This document shows positions 14,933 to 25,205 of a stretch of DNA of 64,000 nucleotides, one piece after another. Origin of the DNA: Candidatus Bathyarchaeota archaeon (GTDB lineage Archaea; Thermoproteota; Bathyarchaeia; 40CM-2-53-6). Positions within the stretch are counted from its first letter, which is position 1. Each line of letters begins with the position of its first letter. The position numbers were made by a program, and so were the translations under genes. Location of the stretch: the NCBI GenBank assembly GCA_963753065.1, contig CAVWAQ010000002.1, positions 74,185 through 138,184 on the forward strand, written 5' to 3'. The notes beneath the pieces are model-generated. The model saw only the letters and a list, made by a program, of their open reading frames with translations, was not told where the DNA came from and searched no databases.

Positions 14933-15748
14933 TCAGCGTTTCTGACACTTGGGGCAAATGTAGCTCGCTGTGTTGCCGGTTCTGATCTTCATTATCGCAG
15001 TTTTGCACACTGGGCAGGGTTCGCCTGTCTTGTATGCGACCAAGTAGTACTCCGGCCCATATTTCCCATAGCGGCCGTAGAGGTCCCTTTCATACTTCAA
15101 GCCTCCAAGTCTGATACTCAGATTCAGGACTTCTTGCATGCTTTGATGAAGAGCTTCGATCTCCGGCTCGGCAAGCGTGGGGATCATGCGAAGAGGATGA
15201 AGTCTAGCCTTGAACAAGATGTCCTGAACGTACACGTTGCCTATTCCAGCAACATTCTTCTGATTCAACAGAAAGCTCTTGATCGCCCCCCGTCTACCCG
15301 ACAGCAGGGAGGCCAGCTTCTCTGCTGTAAATTCCCTATCTAAGGGGGATATTCCCAGCTTGTTCGTCATCTTGTGCTTGGGCAGCTCTTTGTCGGACGC
15401 GAGATGGATGTAGCCGAACCAGGAGAATGTGGCCGTTAGTCCGGTTTTGTCATCGAAGGTCAGTCGAAGTTGATACTTTTTCGGCAGGGTGGTGTTGTTC
15501 TCGTGGTAGAGCAAGTCTCCTCCCATGCCAAGATTCAGTAGTAGGTTATCGTCCGGATCTAGGTTTGTGAAAAGCCATTTTCCCCGCGCTTTGGTTTCCC
15601 TAACTGTCTTGGCTCCTATTCTTTGGAACTTCTTAACTGGCATGTTAATGCATCGGGGCTGAGTCACGTCAAGATCGGTGATTCGTTTCCCCTGGAGCTG
15701 CTTCGTCATCTGCCTCGAAAGGTTCGTGATCTCAGGAAGTTCTGGCAT
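14933..15748 (-). CDS. Fpg/Nei family DNA glycosylase/AP lyase
   Basis: N-terminal MPELPE, RGKWL, LGMGG, H2TH GIGNVY, C-terminal CPVC...CPKCQ zinc finger. Confidence 0.93.
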   Translation of the reverse strand: MPELPEITNLSRQMTKQLQGKRITDLDVTQPRCINMPVKKFQRIGAKTVRETKARGKWLFTNLDPDDNLLLNLGMGGDLLYHENNTTLPKKYQLRLTFDDKTGLTATFSWFGYIHLASDKELPKHKMTNKLGISPLDREFTAEKLASLLSGRRGAIKSFLLNQKNVAGIGNVYVQDILFKARLHPLRMIPTLAEPEIEALHQSMQEVLNLSIRLGGLKYERDLYGRYGKYGPEYYLVAYKTGEPCPVCKTAIMKIRTGNTASYICPKCQKR

Positions 15749-16378
15749 AGGCCGTTCGCAGTCCTCGATGAGCCTTGCATTGTATTTAGATTGATTCTGA
15801 AACTGTCGAAGGCATATCCTGACAGCGAGAAGCGACCTCAGCAGAGGATCAGGGCAACAACGACGTAAACGGTCCAACACAGCATGTCGCTCGACCCTCC
15901 TAACCGCGGTCACAGCACGCCCATGTGGGAAGGACACGAACTGTACGTTCGAAGACTCGTCACATTAGAAGTGAGAACATGAGCTCCGAAAGGATTGATT
16001 TCTTGCGTTTGATAGCTTTCACTCTTGGGGCAGGCGCCATAGGGGTCTTGGCCATTCTCGCCCTCATAAGATAGTCACGCACACCTGAGCTGTCCCACAT
16101 ACGTTTCTTCCGTGCTAGGCTCCATTGGCTCAGAGACGGCCAATCGGAAAGAATGTTGACCAGAGGAAGCAACTTCTCCGTCACCGTCCGTTGTTCACCT
16201 CGTTCCCGGATCCTCTGATTTCCACGCAGACGAGGCACGCGGCCGGGCGACAACGGGTTGGACGAGTGGCCCATTGATCCTCTCGGCTGAGACGACTAGG
16301 CAGGTCAGCGGGCGAGTCCTAACCAATCGAAGCAGCCATTACACGTCATCTATGCAATGAGGGGGTTGATGGCGGCCT

Positions 16379-17182
16379 CTACCGGCCCCGGAAGCGAGCC
16401 TTCTTTTTCTGCATAAACGCAGACAGTCCTTCCAGAAAATCCTCCGTGCCGGCTTGTGTTACGAGTCGTTGTCGCTCTCGTTCCAGTTGTGTCTCAAGCA
16501 TTGGGAACAGTGTTGCATTGACGAGCGCCTTGGCGCCGCCAAAGGCAGTCGTCGGTCCTTGGGCCAGCTGAGTTGAGACCGCTCGCGCTCGTTCAAGTAG
16601 TCTGTCATCTGGCACGATTTCGTGTACAAGTCCTAGGGCCAGTGCTTGCCTTGCGTCCAATATTGGGTCGGTCAATAGGAGTTCCATCGTTCTCGCTCCT
16701 CCGATGATCTGGGGAACGATTGCTGTCCATCCCAGGTCCGGAATAAGGCCGATAGATGTGTAGGCTTGCTTTAGCCTAGCACTCTCGGCGGCAAGGCGGA
16801 AATCACAGGCCATTGCTAGGCTCATTCCGCCACCACCGGCCGTGCCGTTGATCGCCGCAATCACCGGCTTCTCCATCAAGCGAATGTCGGTAATCGCACG
16901 ATGCAGGGGCACCGTCAAATCGCGGAAGAAGTCACGGAGATCCCCTCCCGCCTGGTGGTGCTCCCAAGCTGCCTTCATGTCCCCTCCTGCACAAAACCCC
17001 CGACCGGCTCCTGTGAGCAGTACACTTCGGACGTTGTTGTCATCCTTGCAGGATTGGATTGCTTTGGCTAATGCCTCGCTCGTGGAGAGGTTGAGAGCGT
17101 TCAGTACTTCAGGCCGGTTAAGAGTAATTGTGGCGACACTATCAGCTGTAGTCAATTGGACAACTTGATCGGTCATATCCAT
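16379..17182 (-). CDS. Enoyl-CoA hydratase/isomerase (PaaG-like)
   Basis: LNRPEVLNAL, FCAGGD, AINGTAGGGG, GLIPD. Confidence 0.92.
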   Translation of the reverse strand: MDMTDQVVQLTTADSVATITLNRPEVLNALNLSTSEALAKAIQSCKDDNNVRSVLLTGAGRGFCAGGDMKAAWEHHQAGGDLRDFFRDLTVPLHRAITDIRLMEKPVIAAINGTAGGGGMSLAMACDFRLAAESARLKQAYTSIGLIPDLGWTAIVPQIIGGARTMELLLTDPILDARQALALGLVHEIVPDDRLLERARAVSTQLAQGPTTAFGGAKALVNATLFPMLETQLERERQRLVTQAGTEDFLEGLSAFMQKKKARFRGR

Positions 17183-17312
17183 GTCTCACGACTGTATCGT
17201 ATAATGTGAGGGCTTGCCCCAAATGCTTTCCCCTGGCGGTCGCACGACAGTCGCCCCCAAGTCAGCATGACCTATTCTACACTAACCTGTCAAGGATTCG
17301 AATTACAACACC

Positions 17313-17326
17313 CGCACGAATGCACC
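17313..17326. repeat. Left target-site duplication (14 bp)
   Basis: CGCACGAATGCACC abuts the left TIR; direct copy at 23014-23027 with 1 mismatch. Confidence 0.88.
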
Positions 17327-17401
17327 GGGGATATAACGTAAGGCGTGTTTTTGGGTGTCCACGTGGATGTGGTTTTGGGGACGTGGAAGTCCACGTGTAA
17401 G
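17327..17401 (+). repeat. Left terminal inverted repeat (75 bp)
   Basis: Starts GGGGATATAACG; reverse complement of 22939-23013 at 74/75 positions. Confidence 0.95.
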
Positions 17402-17546
17402 TGGAACGTGGAAGTTCAGTTGTTTAACGTGTAAACTGGGCCTTGTTGTCCTAGTTGTTTCGAAACCCAGCTTCATAGGTCTGGGCGTCACTTCAGTCTC
17501 CGTTTAAGTATCCTCACACGCAGATTCTATCAAGGTTCGTTCATGA

Positions 17547-18056
17547 CGAAGAAAACTCAGGCAGACCAAGTATCCGCTCGTCCACGACTTCCAGGAGCCC
17601 TATCGATGGCTAGTCGATACCACAGTGATTTCCTGCTTGGAGAGCAGCCGATTCGGGAAGAAGGACTTCTACAGAATGGACAACTACGTCCTCAGACTCA
17701 GGCTCGAAGCAGCAAGGAAGTTCATTGACGCCCTGCGAGTTAGGTTCAACTCACCTGTTCGATATGCAGGGAAACTCTACAGCTGGGACAATGTAATCAG
17801 ATTGAAAGCACAGGAGCTGGCAAACCATATCCTAGGCAGACGGACTGATCTGGACTTCAGCAAACCCAAGCCGGTTCTACATAGGACTGATTCCGAAGCT
17901 ATCAGAAATCGAATACTGTACATGACAACAGCTGACGCGAGAAAGCGTGGGATCAGAAAGAAGGCCCTGTGGCACATGCAACAGAGGGCTCGCGAGCACA
18001 AGACCTTCGAGATCTACAGCAAAGTGGGAACCAAACTCTCACAGCCGATGACGTAG
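17547..18056 (+). pseudogene. cas1: C-terminal remnant of casposon Cas1 (casposase) with HTH-type extension
   Basis: In-frame YPLVHDFQEPYRWLVD, KDFYRMDNYVLRLR, KAQELANHILG...LDFSKP, DSEAIRNRIL...GIRKKALWHMQQRA; in-frame stop at 17544 and no N-terminal domain. Confidence 0.85.
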
Positions 18057-18291
18057 CACCTCGACAATCTTATTGCAAGAGAACACGTAGATGCCAATGT
18101 ATTTCGAGTGAGTGTTCTCCTTCTCAATTAGCGTTGCCTAGGTACAGCACGGCTGAGATCCTGAAGTCGGCGCTTTCATAGGTGAACCATTGAATTGAAC
18201 CGTTGAATGTGCGCGCACACGAGCCTATCATATCGAACGTGGTGTTGTTTAGTGGGTTCTTTGATCTTTGCTCGAAGATCCAATTCCGGGT

Positions 18292-18822
18292 CTACTTGTT
18301 GAACTTGCTCAGTTCTCTTGCCCGATCAAGTTCTTTCAGTTGGCTGAGCTCCTCGGCCCTCTTTAGAACCTTAATGATTCTGTGGGCTTCGTCCGTGTTC
18401 CTTCCGACCTCGAGGGGATATGTTGCTGCGAATCTTAGAATGCCTTCAGGGTCTATCACGAACAATCCTCTATACGTGATTCTCCTTGTCTTATGGAGTA
18501 TTCCGTATTTTTCCGCTAGTTTTCTGTCCTCGTCGGCTATCAATGGATAGTCTATGATGACCCCGTTTCTCTTCCTGATGTCGTCAATCCATTTCATGTG
18601 TGTTTCAACGGAGTCGACGCTCCATCCAAGGAATTGGACGTCCATCAGATCGAATTCAGATTTCCTATTTGCGAAACAGATTATGTCTGCTTCGCAGATG
18701 GGCGTGAAGTCGGCAGGGTACGCGAAGAGTACCAGCCACTTTCCTCTCAAGCTGGATAGTGAGATCTTGCCTCTCGTTGTATCCGCTGTGAAGTCAGGAG
18801 CTGGCTCATCAAGGCTTACCAT
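18292..18822 (-). CDS. Peroxiredoxin (AhpC/TSA family)
   Basis: APDF, YPADFTPICE, SVDS..H..W, RGLFVIDPEG, VGRN. Confidence 0.92.
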   Translation of the reverse strand: MVSLDEPAPDFTADTTRGKISLSSLRGKWLVLFAYPADFTPICEADIICFANRKSEFDLMDVQFLGWSVDSVETHMKWIDDIRKRNGVIIDYPLIADEDRKLAEKYGILHKTRRITYRGLFVIDPEGILRFAATYPLEVGRNTDEAHRIIKVLKRAEELSQLKELDRARELSKFNK

Positions 18823-18895
18823 CGTGTACCAACGAAAGGGATATGAGTCGAGGCTGTGATTTAAGCTGGACAGAATTACGGAAGAGGTGAGGTTT

Positions 18896-19042
18896 TTGGT
18901 ATCATACAAGCAGGGCGATGTCTACGTTTGCGACGATCCCAAGTGCGATATTGAAGTCACCGTAAGTAAGGGTTGCACGGAGGAAGTTTGTCCAAACTGT
19001 GGCCCCCTAATATGTTGCGATAAGCCCATGGTTAAGAAGTAG
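18896..19042 (+). CDS. 48-aa desulforedoxin-like Cys-rich protein (not in ORF track)
   Basis: GAGGTGA SD then TTG; MVSYKQGDVYVCDDPKCDIEVTVSKGCTEEVCPNCGPLICCDKPMVKK. Confidence 0.8.
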   Translation: MVSYKQGDVYVCDDPKCDIEVTVSKGCTEEVCPNCGPLICCDKPMVKK

Positions 19043-19255
19043 GCGAACCCTCAGATTCTCTTTCTTTCCTTATGTTATCGATTGTCGTAACCCGTCCATC
19101 GACCCTATGTTCCCCCTCTTGTTCTTCGCCGCGATTAAGAAACCAACGTACGCCAAGGGCACGGGACTGGGATTAAGTGTGGCGAAAGCGCTGGTTGAGG
19201 CGCACGGTGAGCGCATATGACCAAAGCGGGCGTGTAGGGAATATGGAGTACAGTC

Positions 19256-19438
19256 CTAGTTCTGGATTGGTGTTGGTTCGCAGAGGTTCTCAGCCTTTGC
19301 CGCTGCCCGTCCACACTGCATGCAAACATATTTTGGACCCCTGACGAACACCAGAAATGCCTTCAAAGTGGTTCCGCCTTCCACTTTCCTACACAGATGA
19401 TTCTCGTGGCCTGTATGACGTTTCTTGAAGAGTGGCAT
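19256..19438 (-). CDS. 60-aa His/Cys-rich putative metal-binding protein
   Basis: HTGHENHLC...PKYVCMQCGRAA....NLCEP. Confidence 0.7.
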   Translation of the reverse strand: MPLFKKRHTGHENHLCRKVEGGTTLKAFLVFVRGPKYVCMQCGRAAAKAENLCEPTPIQN

Positions 19439-19762
19439 AGCTGACCTTCCACTTTCCTGACAGGCCCCACTACCACACTTAACTCTTTGCAGACAGGCGA
19501 TTGACAACCGCGCGGAGTGACTGGCGTTCCTAACCGGAACAAACAAGCGTCACACCAGCATCCCTGCAAGCTGAACCTTCCGTTCAAAAAGCTCTCCTGG
19601 GGTCAAACTGAGGAACACAATCGAACACATGTCTCCTCGTGGAAAGCGTAGAATACCCAATCGAAATTCTCGGGTATTGCAGACACCACTACGAGTGGAG
19701 CCCAGTTATGTGTTGGAAGTCTGTGCTGTGCAAGCCCATGATCGCTCTCACTTAGTTGCAGA

Positions 19763-20182
19763 CTAGTGGTTTGGGTGCTGAATTGGATTTCCATGATTGC
19801 AGTGGGAAGGCCGGTTGAGGGCTTTGCACATCTTCTGTATGACGGTTTTGTCAAGCAGGTAGTCGACTTTCGAAGCCTCCTTGCAAGACTTCTCGTGACT
19901 CAAGCCGAGTATTCTGCTGAAGTAGAGTTCGACAATCCTGTGTCGATGCATTATGGACTCTGCCAACGTGACACCTTTTGTGCTCAGCTTTGGAACCTTC
20001 CAAGGTTTGCGCATGACAAACCCTTTCTCCTCAAGCCTTTCTAGGATCCCTATCGCGGTCGGTAGCCTCACACCAAATTGCTTCGCCAATGTGGACACCG
20101 ATGTCGCGCGACGGGACTCATTGAGACGGTGCATCGTCTGGAGGTATGCCACCTCAGATCTAGTTAATTCAGGAACACTCAA
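19763..20182 (-). CDS. DtxR/MntR-family metal-dependent repressor
   Basis: N-terminal wHTH, HRHRIVELYF, EASKVDY, PSHCNHGNPI. Confidence 0.9.
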   Translation of the reverse strand: MSVPELTRSEVAYLQTMHRLNESRRATSVSTLAKQFGVRLPTAIGILERLEEKGFVMRKPWKVPKLSTKGVTLAESIMHRHRIVELYFSRILGLSHEKSCKEASKVDYLLDKTVIQKMCKALNRPSHCNHGNPIQHPNH

Positions 20183-20194
20183 ACAAGCGCAACC

Positions 20195-21037
20195 CTAGCG
20201 CGTGGAAACACGCCGTTTTCCTCTCCGTGTGGCGACTAACGTGACTATGAAGATTGCCAACCCTGTTAATACAATTGTTGCACCTGAGGCGGTATCGGTA
20301 ATAACTGACGCGATCAAGCCGAGCACAACGCTCAGAAGACCGAATACTGGAGATAGCAAGACTGTTTGCCGTAGCGATTTGCTGATTTGAACGCTTGTCA
20401 GAGCGGGAAGAACAAGCAAGGCCGAGATCAGGAGAACGCCGACAATTGGTATTGAGACTATTATCGCAATCCCAGCAAACACGCCGACTGAATAGTCGAA
20501 GAACCATGTCCTTATTCCCGCAGCTCTTGCTTGGACTTCGTCGAACGTGCTGTAGGCTAGCTCCTTGTAGAAGACAAGCACAAACGCAAACGTGACTCCG
20601 AGAACAAGCAGAGCATAGAGTATCTGATCAAAGGTGACTAAGAGGATGCTTCCAAAGAGGAGGCTTTCCAAGTTTATTCCATAGCCACGCGCCAGACTGA
20701 GTAGAAAAATCCCGGACGCTAGGCCAAGCTCGAGGAAAACCGCGACTGCGGCGTCACCGGATACCTTCGATCTCATCGCTTTAGTTATTCCAATGGAACC
20801 AAGAATGACGATGACGCCAGCAACCCACAACGGCAGGAAGCCAAGATAGTAGCCCAACGCGAGGCCGCCGAAGGCTGTGTGCGCTAAGCCGTCACCGATA
20901 AGAGACATTCTCTTCAGAACGATGAACACGCTCAGGATCGAGCTCAAAAGAGCCACTATGATTCCTATCACGAATGCTCTTTGGATGAATCCCTGAGCCA
21001 TCATTGTGAAAAATGCGTCAAGTGTGGGAATCGTCAA
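20195..21037 (-). CDS. znuB: Zn/Mn ABC transporter permease
   Basis: MSLIGDGLAHTAFGG, LFGSIL, VGVLLISALLVLPA, SGATIV. Confidence 0.9.
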   Translation of the reverse strand: MTIPTLDAFFTMMAQGFIQRAFVIGIIVALLSSILSVFIVLKRMSLIGDGLAHTAFGGLALGYYLGFLPLWVAGVIVILGSIGITKAMRSKVSGDAAVAVFLELGLASGIFLLSLARGYGINLESLLFGSILLVTFDQILYALLVLGVTFAFVLVFYKELAYSTFDEVQARAAGIRTWFFDYSVGVFAGIAIIVSIPIVGVLLISALLVLPALTSVQISKSLRQTVLLSPVFGLLSVVLGLIASVITDTASGATIVLTGLAIFIVTLVATRRGKRRVSTR

Positions 21038-21770
21038 TCACCTTCATTGGGTAACCATAAGTCTTCGCTAGAATTCCATTCGTAAACCCCGACTTCGGTC
21101 CGTAATAGAATAGAGTCCGATTAACGCACACAACCTTGTTCGCCAATTTTGTCACGCTATCAACATCATGCGAGGACAGAACAATGGCGATTCCTCGATC
21201 CCTGTTCAAGTCAGCGAGAAGGGTGTAGAATTCCGTCTTGGAGTGAATGTCAGCACCGCTCGTAGGCTCATCGAGGATTAGGATCTCTGGTTCTGTTGCA
21301 AGTGCTTTTGCCACGAGGACACGCTGCAGTTGCCCGCCTGAAAGTTGACCCAGCTTCCTATTTCGTAGCTCTGAGATCTCGAGAAGCTTCAAAGCCTCCT
21401 CAGTCTTCGTCTTGTCATTCTTGGTGAAAGGACGGAGTAGCCCCGCGTGTGGAACCCTTCCAAACATGACAGTCTCAAAAACCGTCGCGGGAAATCCATG
21501 GGCGGTTGACTCGAGAACCTGTGGAACATAGCCAACTCTTCGCAGGTTCTTCGTCGATATTGATTCTCCGAACAGCGTAACTGCGCCTGACGTAGGTCTG
21601 ATCAAGCCGAGAATTACGCTGATCAGGGTGGTTTTCCCCGCCCCGTTGGGCCCGATGAATCCAACCAAGTCATTCTTGGATATCTGGAACGAGATGTGGT
21701 CCACGGCCCACACCCCGTTTGGATATTGAACCCCTACGTTGATGAGTTCGATGAGGCTAGCATCCCACAC
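21018..21770 (-). CDS. znuC: Zn/Mn ABC transporter ATPase
   Basis: GPNGAGKTT, GYVPQ, LSGGQLQR, LDEPT, SSHD. Confidence 0.9.
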   Translation of the reverse strand: MWDASLIELINVGVQYPNGVWAVDHISFQISKNDLVGFIGPNGAGKTTLISVILGLIRPTSGAVTLFGESISTKNLRRVGYVPQVLESTAHGFPATVFETVMFGRVPHAGLLRPFTKNDKTKTEEALKLLEISELRNRKLGQLSGGQLQRVLVAKALATEPEILILDEPTSGADIHSKTEFYTLLADLNRDRGIAIVLSSHDVDSVTKLANKVVCVNRTLFYYGPKSGFTNGILAKTYGYPMKVIDDSHT

Positions 21771-22698
21771 TGTTGAGCGCCAACTTGAAGGAACCCAAGT
21801 CATCCTGCATCTTCGTCAGGTAGTCCTTACCGGCCGCTTGATCAGATTGGCTGAGACCTTCGATCGGATCCATCAAGATCAGCGTTGCATGCGTTTGACC
21901 GGCAATTGATTGTGATATGCTTGGATTCTCGAGCGATTCGTACCCGACATAGCAGAGGCGGTATTCGTTTATCGTCGCGACTACGTTGCTTATGTCGCCC
22001 GGCGTTGGTTCTTCCTCAAATGGCCCCGAAATAGAGATCTGCGTGAGATTGTACCGTCTCGCGAAATACGCGAAGGCTTCATGAAAAGTGACGAAGTATC
22101 GCGTCTTCGCGTGCGCAGCAACATCCGATATCTCCGAATTCAACGTGTCAAGTCTGGCGATATACTTCTCTGCGTTGGAGGTGAAGTACTCCTGATCATT
22201 AGGGTCAGCCTTTATGAGCCCATTAAGGATGTTCGTGACCTGCTGCTTAGCGAGTAGTGGGTCTAACCATATGTGCGGATCCACTGTACGATTGCCTTTC
22301 TGGAATTGCGATGGAACCGGCAACAATGGGATCCCTTGACTAGAATCGACTAGGACTAATCCGGGATTGCCCGCTGCAGCGGTAATCTGGGGAATCCAAG
22401 GCTCAAGCCCAGCTCCGCTGAAGATCAAGACGTTGGCGTTAGCCACTTCTTGTATTGACTGTGGCGTCGGCTCGAACTGATGGACATCCACAGTCTCGGG
22501 CACGAGCAGCGAAAGCGAAATCCGATTACCCCCAACATTCGCCGCAAAATCGTACACCGGATAGAATGTCGCCAGCACCTTGATTCGTCCCCCCGCCGGC
22601 TCAACGACATGAACCTCCCGACTGTACAAATAGACACCCGAGAGCGCCACAAGTACAACCATTGCTATTCCGATAAGTACGATGTACGGCCGCTTCAT
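21757..22698 (-). CDS. znuA: Zn/Mn ABC transporter substrate-binding protein
   Basis: N-terminal TM anchor; DVHQFEPTP, DPHIWLDP, FHEAFAYF. Confidence 0.9.
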   Translation of the reverse strand: MKRPYIVLIGIAMVVLVALSGVYLYSREVHVVEPAGGRIKVLATFYPVYDFAANVGGNRISLSLLVPETVDVHQFEPTPQSIQEVANANVLIFSGAGLEPWIPQITAAAGNPGLVLVDSSQGIPLLPVPSQFQKGNRTVDPHIWLDPLLAKQQVTNILNGLIKADPNDQEYFTSNAEKYIARLDTLNSEISDVAAHAKTRYFVTFHEAFAYFARRYNLTQISISGPFEEEPTPGDISNVVATINEYRLCYVGYESLENPSISQSIAGQTHATLILMDPIEGLSQSDQAAGKDYLTKMQDDLGSFKLALNSVGC

Positions 22699-22713
22699 AG
22701 GATCGCCCCGAAG

Positions 22714-22751
22714 TTAGCTAAAGCCTAAGTTAGGACATCCCTAATATTAGG
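22714..22751. promoter_or_regulatory. Tandem DtxR-type operators upstream of znuA
   Basis: TTAGCTAAAGCCTAA (22714-22728), perfect TTAGG-N5-CCTAA (22730-22744), further TTAGG half-site at 22747. Confidence 0.7.
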
Positions 22752-22938
22752 CTATCTCTTTGACCCATCCCAGGAAACTAGAACATATGACGAGCCGTGA
22801 CGACTCGAATCTGGGGGCAAGCGAGAAATAGGGTTGAAGAATACGTTTCTGCGGTGCCAGAAGGCAACGCTCGAAGATTATCTGTGAAATCATGTTACAG
22901 GAAAGCTAGGACGCTCAGGCCCAAAGATCAGACTCTGG

Positions 22939-23013
22939 CTTACACGTGGACTTCCACGTCCCCAAAACCACATCCACGTGGACACCCAAAAACACGCCTT
23001 ACGTTATGTCCCC
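22939..23013 (-). repeat. Right terminal inverted repeat (75 bp)
   Basis: Inverted copy of 17327-17401 with 1 mismatch. Confidence 0.95.
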
Positions 23014-23027
23014 CGCACGAGTGCACC
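23014..23027. repeat. Right target-site duplication (14 bp)
   Basis: CGCACGAGTGCACC. Confidence 0.88.
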
Positions 23028-23236
23028 CACACACGAAACTGCTCCTACTCGCGACGGTCCAACTTACGACGCTTGCGCCATGAAAGGCACACGAGGCGAC
23101 GACGGACAAATGACGAGGGACCGAGAACTGCATGAAAGACGAAGGACAGGTTACGGTTGCCTGAGAAATCCAATAAAGCGCTGACAGCCCCTTGATCCGT
23201 CTGCCCAAACAAGGAAGATGCGGGCGAGGTGAAAGG

Positions 23237-23722
23237 ATGTCTGAATCGTTACTGACGCGGCTACTGCTCCGGCGGCTGTACAACTTGTGGCCTTGCTATT
23301 GGGGAACGGGCGTCCGTCTCAAATACATCGCCAGAGATTTCCGCGAGATGCGTATAGAGCTCCCGCTCAACTGGCGCACACGGAACTATGTAGGAACCAT
23401 TTTCGGCGGAAGCATGTACGGCGCGGTCGACCCGTTGTACATGTTGATGCTGATCAAGAACTTGGGGCCGGGCTATGAGATATGGGACAAGGCGGCGACT
23501 ATCCGGTTCAAGAAGCCCGGTCGCTCCACACTTCACGCCAGTTTCACGTTGAATCAAGAGGAGCTCCTTCGGATAAGAGAGGAACTTGCTCAGGCAGGTT
23601 CCATTGACCGCGTCTACGTGATTGACCTCACTGATGATGAGGGCACAGTGTGTGCCACGGTCGAGAAGACGATCCACATTCGCAGGAAAGAAACGAGCGA
23701 CATGGGAAGAAAGGGGCCTTAG
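23237..23722 (+). CDS. Hotdog-fold thioesterase-like protein (DUF4442/PaaI-like)
   Basis: NLWPCY, RNYVGTIFGGS, WDKAATIRFKKPG. Confidence 0.85.
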   Translation: MSESLLTRLLLRRLYNLWPCYWGTGVRLKYIARDFREMRIELPLNWRTRNYVGTIFGGSMYGAVDPLYMLMLIKNLGPGYEIWDKAATIRFKKPGRSTLHASFTLNQEELLRIREELAQAGSIDRVYVIDLTDDEGTVCATVEKTIHIRRKETSDMGRKGP

Positions 23723-24128
23723 CTCACTACTGCCACCTCGAACGTGCAGGCGACTACATCTGGGCCGCGATTTCTCGGCCAAACGTTTCCGACGAAGGCT
23801 CAAGTAATATTTCTCAATCGCACGGTCCGTGGGCACAGAATTCCGTGGTAGCTTTGGTTTCAGAACCTCGCTCTCTCAAGAAGAGCATAAGGTTGCGAGA
23901 AGGCGTGTTCATGTACGTTGGCTCCGTCCTCGGCTGTGGAATCCTTGTTACATCCGCACTAGCAATAGGAATCATTTCGGTACTTTTGACGAGACGCAAG
24001 ACTGGCCGATAATTGCCTATTATGTCGGTTCTGGAGGTCTTAGTTCTAATCTGTCATTCAGGTCGTTCGTCGTGGCTCCCTGTTTTGCGTACGTGCACAC
24101 TAGGTGACGCGGCGACGACGCGGTTTGA

Positions 24129-24572
24129 TCATTTGCTTTTGGTCACGGACTCCTCTAGCGTTAGGATGCGTTGCTTCATTTCCTCAGGCAACGGAGTCTT
24201 CTTGCTTTCGCGGTAGTTGTAAGAGACCACCACACTTTCTCCTTCGGCCGCAATTGCCTGGGACTTGTGGCTCACGGCGCGATACTCCATCACAAACCTG
24301 TCCTGCTCGATGCTAGGGATCCGTGTCCCGACAGAAACCGTGTCCGGGTAGGTCAGCGGTATCTTGAACTTGCACTGAATAGACGCTAGGATCGGCCCGA
24401 CTCCAGTTTGGTTCATGAACTCCCAGAACCTCAACTTCTCAAAGTAGGCAATTCTGGCGCTTTCGAAATACCGGAAGTAGACGATGTTGTTGACATGTTG
24501 TAGAGCGTCCATTTCTCCCCATGCAATTGGTATGTCTATCACGACAGGAAAACCGGCGAGCGACTCATTCAT
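24129..24572 (-). CDS. Acyl-CoA thioesterase (4HBT/YbgC family)
   Basis: WGEMDALQHVNNIVYFRYFESAR, PLTYPD. Confidence 0.9.
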   Translation of the reverse strand: MNESLAGFPVVIDIPIAWGEMDALQHVNNIVYFRYFESARIAYFEKLRFWEFMNQTGVGPILASIQCKFKIPLTYPDTVSVGTRIPSIEQDRFVMEYRAVSHKSQAIAAEGESVVVSYNYRESKKTPLPEEMKQRILTLEESVTKSK

Positions 24573-24737
24573 GGCACAACCGCACCGTGCGTGGTCCTCT
24601 GGCGACGTTTCTAATCAAGACTTCCACGCGACATGACCCATTTAGCTAGGATTGCGAGTATCGCGCCAAGAATGGACGCGCGCAGAGTCAATGGTTCAAA
24701 TCGCTCTATTCTCATAACACCCTTCTAGAAGCAACCA

Positions 24738-25205
24738 GTGTCGGCGAGAGACATGAATCGCGTAACCATCAGAAACGCCAAGAAGAGCGACCTGCCTGCC
24801 ATCAATCAGCTGATCTTCCAACTCATCAGCACGCTCGACAAGAAAGAGGATATTGATCCCGAATTCGTTTCCCGCAATTCTCGGAGTCTGTTACGAAGTG
24901 CTGACTCTCACTTCCTGGTGGCCGAGGACGGTAAGACTGTCGTAGGTTTCGTGCATTTCACAACAAGAGGGACGGTAACTCATCGCGGCCTGTCTGGGCT
25001 AGTCGATGAGCTTGTGGTTGCGAAAGACTTTCGCAAAGCAGGAATCGGTACGCGACTGTTGTTAGCATCTATTCAAAGATGCAGAGAACTCGGATGCTGC
25101 GAAGTCGAAGTCAGCACAGAAACGACAAACAAGAGCGCAAGAGCATTCTACAGGAGCTGTGGATTTGAAGAACGCGGCATACTTCTAGAGAGAGATCTAG
25201 CGTAG
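24738..25205 (+). CDS. GNAT acetyltransferase
   Basis: LVV..DFRKAGIGTRLL, N..ARAFY..CGF. Confidence 0.88.
   Translation: MSARDMNRVTIRNAKKSDLPAINQLIFQLISTLDKKEDIDPEFVSRNSRSLLRSADSHFLVAEDGKTVVGFVHFTTRGTVTHRGLSGLVDELVVAKDFRKAGIGTRLLLASIQRCRELGCCEVEVSTETTNKSARAFYRSCGFEERGILLERDLA

Follow-up and report, generated by a model that had tools for sequence, protein, structure and literature searches.

The stretch of DNA studied here (the window) comprises 64,000 nucleotides (nt) from a Candidatus Bathyarchaeota archaeon (GenBank assembly GCA_963753065.1; contig CAVWAQ010000002.1, positions 74,185 to 138,184). Between window positions 17327 and 23013 lies an element of 5687 bp, delimited with a repeat finder and a script check, in which two terminal inverted repeats (TIRs) enclose the 3′ part of a cas1 gene, a peroxiredoxin gene, two small cysteine-rich open reading frames (ORFs), a DtxR/MntR-family regulator gene and a three-gene metal importer operon (Table 1). 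We interpret this element as a non-autonomous derivative of a family-2-like casposon in Bathyarchaeia and give this reading, together with the account of arrival, loss and cargo set out below, a probability of roughly 0.86. The reading builds on the ends of the element, the duplication that flanks them, the gene content, the casposase kinship of the Cas1 remnant, the architecture of relatives, the empty sites and the target motif. Casposons matter mainly as presumed ancestors of the CRISPR adaptation machinery, and their natural dynamics are known almost only from Methanosarcina.

Ends and gene content of the element

The two inverted arms are each 75 nt long, 99% complementary according to the repeat finder and separated by 5537 nt. 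They are identical at 74/75 positions, with a sole mismatch (T versus C) at arm position 6, window 23008. Abutting the arms with no spacer are the two copies of a 14-mer, CGCACGAATGCACC on the left and CGCACGAGTGCACC on the right, which agree at 13/14 positions and differ at window 23021; the 16-nt direct repeat returned by the repeat finder takes in two C's of the right arm. Other inverted pairs in the 7.5 kb examined were at most 34 nt long, at 74 to 93% identity. An inverted repeat matching at 74/75 positions and directly adjoined by a 13/14 direct repeat lies far outside what chance would produce. The dimensions given by the initial annotation (75-bp TIRs matching at 74/75, an exactly placed 14-bp repeat matching at 13/14 and a length of 5687 bp) were all reproduced by the repeat finder and the script. 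The G+C content of the element (0.503) is slightly under the window mean (0.529).

The TIR mismatch and the mismatch in the target site duplication (TSD) lie 13 nt apart, both within 14 nt of the right junction, and at each of them the right-end copy has G on the plus strand while the left-end copy, in the same sense, has A. This A/G pair may have arisen by chance or may record the repair of gaps when the element integrated. The TIR belongs to a family that is 76 to 92% conserved in other genomes and metagenome loci. A scan of species-representative genomes with an 18-nt degenerate TIR motif found a whole TIR in at least 7 of at least 119 stretches; among the matches listed, every whole-TIR stretch with a known title (6/6) came from Candidatus Bathyarchaeia or Bathyarchaeota, and the stretches without a whole TIR were chance matches in bacteria. 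Searches for homologs of the subterminal spacer next to the left TIR returned none except a 29-nt match to the subterminal repeats of a relative (locus L066), and a homolog search with the sequence just inside the right TIR gave nothing informative.

Pfam confirmed the peroxiredoxin and the DtxR-type regulator named in the initial annotation, and the two small Cys/His proteins listed there are real ORFs. Searches of Pfam and NCBIfam assigned the latter to no family, with E allowed as high as 5; copies of the 51-amino-acid (aa) ORF adjoin the regulator gene in genome G003 (70% identical) and occur on contig C1 of the element's own genome (68%). A ZnuA-fold binding protein, an ABC-3 permease and an ATPase in one operon form a cluster A-I importer set. 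The initial annotation had named these genes ZnuABC: the three-gene metal ABC importer stands, and the zinc specificity implied by the name is not established, since the NCBIfam matches spread over Azt (AztABC), Mnt (MntABC) and Znu (ZnuABC) models, all below curated cut-offs. The regulator, too, scored below the cut-offs of the NCBIfam models for MntR and DtxR. A DtxR/MntR-type rather than a Zur-type regulator points to manganese or iron rather than zinc. The cargo most likely provides regulated uptake of manganese or zinc, possibly iron, coupled to peroxide defence.

Table 1. Features of the element and its flanks, in window coordinates
Feature	Position	Strand	Evidence or remark
Enoyl-CoA hydratase (left flank)	16379-17182	-	Flanking gene
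Upstream half of target, pseudo-tRNA-Leu 3′-end-like	17290-17312	+	T-loop-like GGATTCGAAT ... CC, runs into the 14-mer
Left TSD	17313-17326	.	CGCACGAATGCACC, begins CGCA; same sequence as the one copy in the metagenome X2 contig that has the empty site
Left TIR	17327-17401	+	75 nt, begins GGGGATATAAC; two CACGTG cores and ACGTGGAAGT motif
Subterminal spacer	17402-17557	+	Extra ACGTGGAAGT copy at 17406; putative deletion junction at right edge
Cas1 (casposase) C-terminal remnant	17547-18053	+	Open frame, 169 codons
Peroxiredoxin (AhpC-TSA family)	18292-18909	-	Pfam E 7.9e-34; NCBIfam models matched below cut-offs
Cys-rich ORF, 51 aa	18887-19042	+	Open reading frame, no family
ORF of at most 96 aa, Cys/His-rich C terminus	19256-19546	-	No family
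DtxR/MntR-family metal-dependent regulator	19763-20182	-	Pfam PF02742 (Fe_dep_repr_C), PF01325 (Fe_dep_repress)
Metal ABC importer permease, ABC-3 family	20195-21037	-	Pfam ABC-3 E 4.3e-56
Metal ABC importer ATPase	21018-21803	-	Pfam ABC_tran E 3.4e-32
Metal ABC importer substrate-binding protein, ZnuA fold	21757-22698	-	Pfam ZnuA E 1.5e-68
Right TIR	22939-23013	-	75 nt, one difference from left arm (23008)
Right TSD	23014-23027	.	CGCACGAGTGCACC, one difference from left copy (23021)
Downstream half of target	23028-23080	+	CACACACGAAA..., then a second decayed pseudo-tRNA-like fragment, 23053-23080
DUF4442 protein (right flank)	23192-23722	+	Flanking gene

Casposase remnant and complete relatives

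The cas1 remnant matched the Pfam family Cas_Cas1 with 28 bits over model positions 223 to 281 of 283. Its best match among solved structures was 6opm_A (E 7.6e-32; residues 252 to 407 of 431), the casposase of Methanosarcina mazei (PMC6977970), whereas CRISPR Cas1 chains reached E 0.052 at best, in alignments that end near query residue ~100. The alignment to 6opm_A extends past that point, to residue 407, and includes the C-terminal helix-turn-helix (HTH) region. Family-2 casposases carry such an extra C-terminal HTH, which is essential for integration (PMC6977970). Among NCBIfam models, none named a casposase was matched by the proteins of the element. These comparisons support grouping the remnant with casposases, not with CRISPR Cas1. 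The initial annotation had likewise read it as a Cas1 C-terminal remnant in an internally deleted casposon, a call consistent with the two E values above, and its description of family 2 (a C-terminal HTH and TSDs of 14 to 15 bp) agrees with PMC6977970.

Longer relatives are numerous in a large protein collection (66 at E ≤ 1e-10, mostly 396 to 409 aa, at up to 81% identity). When aligned with nine of the full-length relatives, the remnant starts directly after the conserved GFLHEA block, so that the catalytic Glu and His positions are absent; it keeps the DxxEP block and everything downstream, including the C-terminal HTH region. At the DNA level, homology to full-length cas1 starts at window ~17558. 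The remnant is 72% identical to the Cas1 of L071, a metagenome locus with a TIR- and PolB-bearing element, and 61% identical to that of metagenome locus L083. A metagenome protein of 409 aa (P0002) joins an N-terminal DNA methylase (PF01555) to the C-terminal 60% of this casposase family; 80% identical to the remnant in the window, it provides a further case of a shortened Cas1 whose reading frame has stayed open.

A scan of metagenome contigs with the alignment of full-length relatives gave 39 loci, 9 of which carry the TIR family of the window and 2 of which have both ends. Complete relatives are ~15 kb long and share a layout of TIR, variable genes, PolB, small genes, a HEAT or winged-HTH gene, Cas1, a cargo bay and TIR. 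In L083 the arms occupy 1035-1108 and 15845-15919, and the TSD (CGCACCAATTGATA) is perfect (14/14). The element encodes a protein of 866 aa that matches PolB weakly, a Cas1 of 415 aa and, immediately upstream of cas1, a HEAT-repeat protein; its right arm is the closest match to the window TIR on a complete casposon (69/75). The 4.6 kb of cargo before that arm encode a Peptidase_S74-domain protein and two glycosyltransferases, unrelated to the cargo in the window. L071, laid out as L083, encodes a 919-aa PolB-like protein, a DEAD-box helicase, a winged-HTH protein and Cas1. Intact cas1 and polB with the same family of ends, which the initial annotation proposed to look for, thus exist in metagenomes (L083 and L071). 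In a genome of a sister genus, L050 has an intact Cas1 with a HEAT gene upstream of it, and its cargo bay holds an inorganic pyrophosphatase, a CrcB fluoride channel, a DUF190 protein, a prenyltransferase-like protein and an inserted insertion sequence. Host-type ion-homeostasis cargo is therefore a trait of the lineage and not of the deleted form.

In the element of the window, the end of the Cas1 remnant is separated from the right arm by 4.9 kb, a geometry like that of the complete relatives, and the cargo therefore occupies the place of their variable genes. As the initial annotation stated, the element has no PolB: no ORF exceeds 313 aa, and tblastn with the PolBs of the relatives found nothing. 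The HTH-HEAT core gene, present as HEAT in L083 and L050 and as winged HTH in L071, is not found in the element either. Because complete relatives measure ~15 kb and have PolB, a HEAT or winged-HTH gene and a full Cas1, ~9 kb has been lost here; the deleted stretch begins ~150 bp in from one TIR and ends midway through cas1. Since intact relatives also carry cargo in the bay, cargo loading probably preceded the deletion.

One further element in a relative genome may be a PolB-less Cas1 element: L053 (6057-15145) spans 9.1 kb with 55-nt inverted ends (84%) and encodes a full 404-aa Cas1, 41% identical to that of L050, and an HNH nuclease, with no ORF large enough for PolB.

Target repeat, empty sites and origin of the cargo

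The element sits in sequence that resembles the 3′ end of a tRNA-Leu gene. All ends examined present the same geometry, with a T-loop-like GGTTCAAAT, 8 to 10 nt, CGCACCA, 7 nt and then the TIR, and the far side continues with CACACACAAA; the duplicated 14-mer therefore begins with CGCA. The motif stands at the identical distance from the TIR at at least 10 other TIR ends, and in relatives the element is found in both orientations relative to it. The first bases of the TSD are CGCA in the window and in L083, and in L071 and in L054 (an element in a relative genome) the first C is equally readable as the last base of the TIR. The tRNA-Leu genes of the same genome end with ...CCCGCACCA, and the flank in the window resembles that 3′ end. 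The arrangement downstream of the element matches an empty site in genome G008 and the genome-wide consensus of the repeat described below. We considered a real tRNA gene at the target and rejected it: neither ARAGORN, run on the window and on locus L003, nor Rfam, run at E ≤ 1 on L003 and window 15000-25000, detected one, so the target is tRNA-like in sequence only. No tRNA was detectable at a solo TIR on contig C4 either.

The target motif has 63 matches in the element's own genome, compared with 7 to 11 in three shuffled versions. The T-stem pairs in 9/63 copies, which are real tRNAs, and does not pair in 54/63; CACACA follows in 32. The target in the window belongs to these ~54 dispersed pseudo-tRNA-Leu copies. 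Copies are often tandem and cluster in islands on contigs C1, C5 and C7. We regard this dispersed pseudo-tRNA-Leu repeat as the putative landing pad of the casposons, and such a family of targets could explain how a site-specific integrase reaches many loci. The repeat unit is ~60 nt long and consists of a tRNA-Leu 3′-end-like part followed by CACACACAAA (for example at C1:3746-7461, C5:208866-260773 and C7:6979-10522); in the window it occurs at 17290-17326 and 23053-23080. Some variants have an inverted TGGTGCG adjoining the CACACA part.

Close relatives retain the site without the element. We compared 10 genomes of the same genus, and contig C25 of one of them (G008:C25) is syntenic with the window, at 86 to 87% identity on the hydratase side and 89 to 92% on the right side; at the insertion point it has the pseudo-tRNA stretch, one 14-mer and the CACA continuation, with neither TIR nor cargo. 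We also compared contigs of four public runs with window 16800-23600. In X2, a peat metagenome from another study than the best holder (X1), a 412-nt contig joins window position 17320 to 23022. It omits 5701 nt, which is the length of the element (5687) plus one repeat copy (14); its right flank differs from the window at 5 of 365 nt (~1.4% divergence), and its one 14-mer carries A, like the left copy, where the two copies in the window differ. The empty site with one repeat copy, for which the initial annotation suggested a search, was thus found twice. That annotation also held that the element would be in doubt if relatives had the cargo at this locus without TIRs and no empty site existed; cargo without TIRs was found at other loci, and an empty site exists. 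Because close relatives keep it, the insertion is recent on the scale of the species.

These sites also bear on a different explanation, in which the genes are native to the locus and the TIRs are solo remnants of two insertions, or in which the interior was swapped by homologous recombination between TIRs. Solo TIRs are common, and the cargo module does occur in non-casposon contexts in genomes G002 and G003. However, the two 14-mers are direct repeats of one target, G008 and X2 lack all 5687 bp together with one copy and have exactly joined flanks, and the Cas1 remnant has the position and orientation expected of a single element. Two separate insertions are largely refuted by the X2 contig, because it skips exactly 5701 nt. 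We consider this explanation as a whole very improbable.

The module itself has close counterparts elsewhere in the genus. In G002:C110 the regulator-importer block is 96% identical at the nucleotide level (permease 96% at the amino acid level) and lies among metY-, metA- and MarR-like genes, as read from their translations, with neither TIR nor cas1. G003:C10 has the module at 92% identity in yet another context, again without TIRs. The housekeeping right flank in G002 and G003 is only ~80% identical to the window, and peat and wetland runs hold the regulator-importer block at ~95 to 99% identity. Across the genus, the module is thus conserved far better than the sequence around it, a pattern consistent with horizontal movement in recent times, and we infer that a chromosome from within the genus was the source of the captured importer and regulator. 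On G003:C10, G+C climbs to ~75% starting 0.7 kb past the module, and at the end of the contig (locus L025, 8750-13087) it goes from ~0.5 to 0.70-0.78; this contig is probably chimeric and uninformative on that side of the module.

Mobility, alternative histories and known casposons

The anatomy of the ends and the published biochemistry of family 2 suggest how the element may have arrived. A casposase would have joined both TIR ends to a staggered 14-bp target beginning with CGCA, situated 7 nt past a CGCACCA-type pseudo-tRNA-Leu 3′ end, and filling in of the gaps would have yielded the 14-bp duplication. The lost stretch took with it PolB, the HEAT/HTH gene and ~240 residues from the Cas1 N terminus, among them two of the three catalytic positions. 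With PolB and these positions lost, the element would be unable to cut, join or replicate itself, so that any further movement would need casposase supplied in trans, while the remaining cargo bay would serve the host in metal import and peroxide defence. What we infer from the observed structures is the chemistry of integration, what the cargo does and whether deletion came before or after insertion; on this last point the odds are about even.

One possibility is that the element was already a mini-element on arrival, with the deletion and the copying of one arm onto its partner having taken place elsewhere and integration having been carried out in trans by the casposase of an intact casposon. 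The arms agree at 74/75 here and at 73/75 in L054, compared with 64/75 and 62/75 in two complete casposons with clean TSDs, and the two deleted elements are laid out alike: TIR, short spacer (~157 and 52 bp, respectively), cas1 3′ remnant, cargo, TIR. The inner TIR sequence GGGGACGTGGAAGTCCACGTG hardly varies between elements with Cas1 proteins that share just 40 to 60% identity, so cross-mobilization is plausible. Moreover, a synthetic TSD-TIR-marker-TIR-TSD mini-casposon integrated in vivo via chromosomally encoded proteins (PMC10359463), and the insertion site is polymorphic among close relatives. Against these observations, a copy at a second site was found neither in the element's own genome nor in the four public runs, contigs from these runs with the TIR and other flanks do not extend into this interior, and the assembled genome has no helper. 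The contrast in arm identity is one of two elements versus two, and a third element without cas1, L056, has a decayed partner arm. We therefore hold arrival as a mini-element to be a tentative possibility, somewhat short of an even chance. The initial annotation had spoken of an internally deleted casposon turned cargo vehicle: the layout of the relatives bears out the internal deletion, and the movement implied by a vehicle is not borne out, given one copy and no helper in the assembled genome.

Two elements in relative genomes bear on the same question. L054 (4106-9312, in another genus) is 5.2 kb long, with arms matching at 73/75 and a TSD of 13 to 14 bp; a 27-aa Cas1 stub stands 52 bp from one arm, and the cargo encodes a MauJ-like protein and one of 1134 aa that belongs to no family. 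L056 (4370-12706) is 8.3 kb long, with one good TIR (89% identical to that in the window) and its decayed partner; it lacks cas1 and PolB, encodes a 944-aa protein among others and is probably an older non-autonomous derivative.

Alternatively, a complete cargo-bearing casposon with near-identical arms may have integrated here and then lost ~9 kb through an ordinary deletion, leaving a remnant that never moved. Decay is common in the family: within the DNA examined, a partner arm was detectable in 1 of 17 further TIR-bearing loci (L056), Cas1 fragments with stops are frequent, and solo TIRs are documented for M. mazei (PMC4779613). A single copy and the lack of a helper fit such decay as well. 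However, it presupposes a parent whose 75-nt arms matched almost perfectly, as those of neither complete relative do, and it requires insertion and deletion within the ~1.4% divergence (5/365) that separates the window from the X2 contig. The end of the deletion, ~150 bp from the TIR, is also mirrored by the independent L054. We place this history only just under an even chance.

Several points weigh against the reading of the element as a casposon derivative with the history proposed above. The own genome (1.93 Mb, 11 contigs, 69% complete) holds no second copy of the element. Nor was an intact casposase, PolB or HEAT gene found in this 69% complete assembly by a Cas1 protein search, Pfam PF01867 and tblastn with the PolB (E 1e-4), HEAT and Cas1 sequences of L083 and L071. 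The window cargo occurs in 0/39 of the metagenome loci, which leaves it without a known intact parent. The PolB assignment in the relatives comes from weak Pfam matches (~24 bits), casposase kinship is judged from structure-database scores and relatives rather than from a tree of named family 1 to 4 references, and cargo function is assigned from family names alone. As to the empty sites, that in G008 has diverged (its 14-mer matches the window TSD at 9/14 positions by manual count), and the X2 evidence is one contig with a depth of 4.7 and 47 nt on its short side, obtained at a likeness setting of 90%. In addition, excision of MetMaz-C1 can restore a single precise site (PMC10359463), and an empty site therefore shows polymorphism and not the direction of change.

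Known casposons provide several points of comparison. In M. mazei, family-2 elements have a 14-bp TSD with a conserved 5′-CGCA that forms the tRNA-Leu gene's last 4 bp; targeting needs ~30 bp of upstream tRNA, both orientations occur and solo TIRs are common (PMC4779613, PMC6977970). The window element and its relatives resemble these elements (MetMaz-C1 and other tRNA-Leu elements) in the casposase with a C-terminal HTH, the 14-bp CGCA TSD, insertion in both orientations, the solo TIRs, a target at or resembling a tRNA-Leu 3′ end and, in the relatives, an HTH/HEAT gene adjoining cas1; the M. mazei TIR terminus GGGATATA is common to the window TIR. In contrast, the host belongs to Bathyarchaeia and not to Methanosarcina, the TIRs are 75 nt rather than the reported 31 to 59 nt, the target is a dispersed pseudo-tRNA repeat instead of a functional tRNA gene, and the window copy lacks PolB and HEAT and has a truncated Cas1. 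The cargo also differs, with nucleases and methylases in M. mazei and metal uptake and redox genes here. NitNCS1-C1 of Candidatus Nitrosotalea okcheonensis (PMC6563490) is likewise of family-2 type, in a non-euryarchaeal archaeon and at a tRNA end; however, it has a fragmented PolB, keeps Cas1, HNH and HTH genes, occupies a real tRNA-Pro site and belongs to a different phylum-level lineage.

The closest counterpart in architecture is man-made. The synthetic mini-casposon pRS1520 (Nucleic Acids Res 2023, PMC10359463) shares the order TSD-TIR-cargo-TIR-TSD with no casposase or PolB inside, and a unit of this type integrates in vivo with proteins from a resident casposon. It carries resistance markers and a plasmid origin on a suicide plasmid, whereas the window element is natural, keeps a Cas1 stub and is known from sequence alone. 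Solo TIRs and degraded casposons (PMC4779613) are decay products at conserved target sites; unlike them, the window element keeps both TIRs and both TSDs nearly intact around functional-looking genes. Miniature inverted-repeat transposable elements (MITEs) and other non-autonomous class II transposons likewise combine TIRs and a TSD with the lack of a functional transposase, and they rely on a helper, but MITEs are short, multicopy and gene-free, and the element here is 5.7 kb long and single-copy, with eight ORFs.

The accessible parts of PMC6452270 and PMC13343696 describe no natural non-autonomous casposon. Our literature search, with subscription papers and supplementary tables outside its scope, found no natural cargo-bearing non-autonomous casposon in print and no report linking casposons with Bathyarchaeia or Bathyarchaeota. 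The casposon catalogue is small; a 2024 study compiled 48 sequences from two reference papers. What makes the element interesting is its natural occurrence as a mini-casposon, the host genes captured as cargo, the polymorphism of its site and a pseudo-tRNA target that is dispersed; the mechanism is not new. A natural gutted casposon at a polymorphic site would show that casposons have an autonomous/non-autonomous life cycle like that of other class II transposons; it would also show them capturing chromosomal genes and give a natural substrate for tests of trans-mobilization. The element also suggests that Bathyarchaeia are a rich, essentially unreported reservoir of casposons. A broader picture, which we think unlikely, is that Bathyarchaeia hold a large undescribed radiation of family-2-like casposons with pseudo-tRNA-Leu landing pads, capture of ion-homeostasis genes and internally deleted mini-elements with homogenized ends, the present one and L054 among them, moved in trans. 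If true, casposons would act as shuttles of adaptive host genes between strains, and the near-identical arms of mini-elements would record how these are made, with one end copied over its partner while a broken intermediate is replicated or repaired.

Other casposon traces are present in the same genome. Cas1 fragments lie at C1:47245-47764 (with stops), C5:204576-204893 (with a stop) and C2:303816-303932. Apart from the two arms of the element, a single TIR-like sequence is present, the solo TIR at C4:69884-69959, which (in C4:66178-74000) stands between a 949-aa nucleoside-phosphorylase/NTPase-like protein and a Vsr/methyltransferase-like cluster. By eye, that cluster comprises a Vsr-type endonuclease, a cytosine methyltransferase and an ATPase, and it looks like a defence-type island beside a casposon scar.

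The insertion neighbourhood is highly plastic. At window ~23650-24012, the first and last few dozen codons of a permease gene are fused, a ~1.09-kb deletion relative to locus L024 (G008:C25), where a complete amino-acid-permease-like gene of ~500 aa occupies that position. In G008, two extra genes (167 and 257 aa) replace the N-terminal part of the DUF4442 gene.

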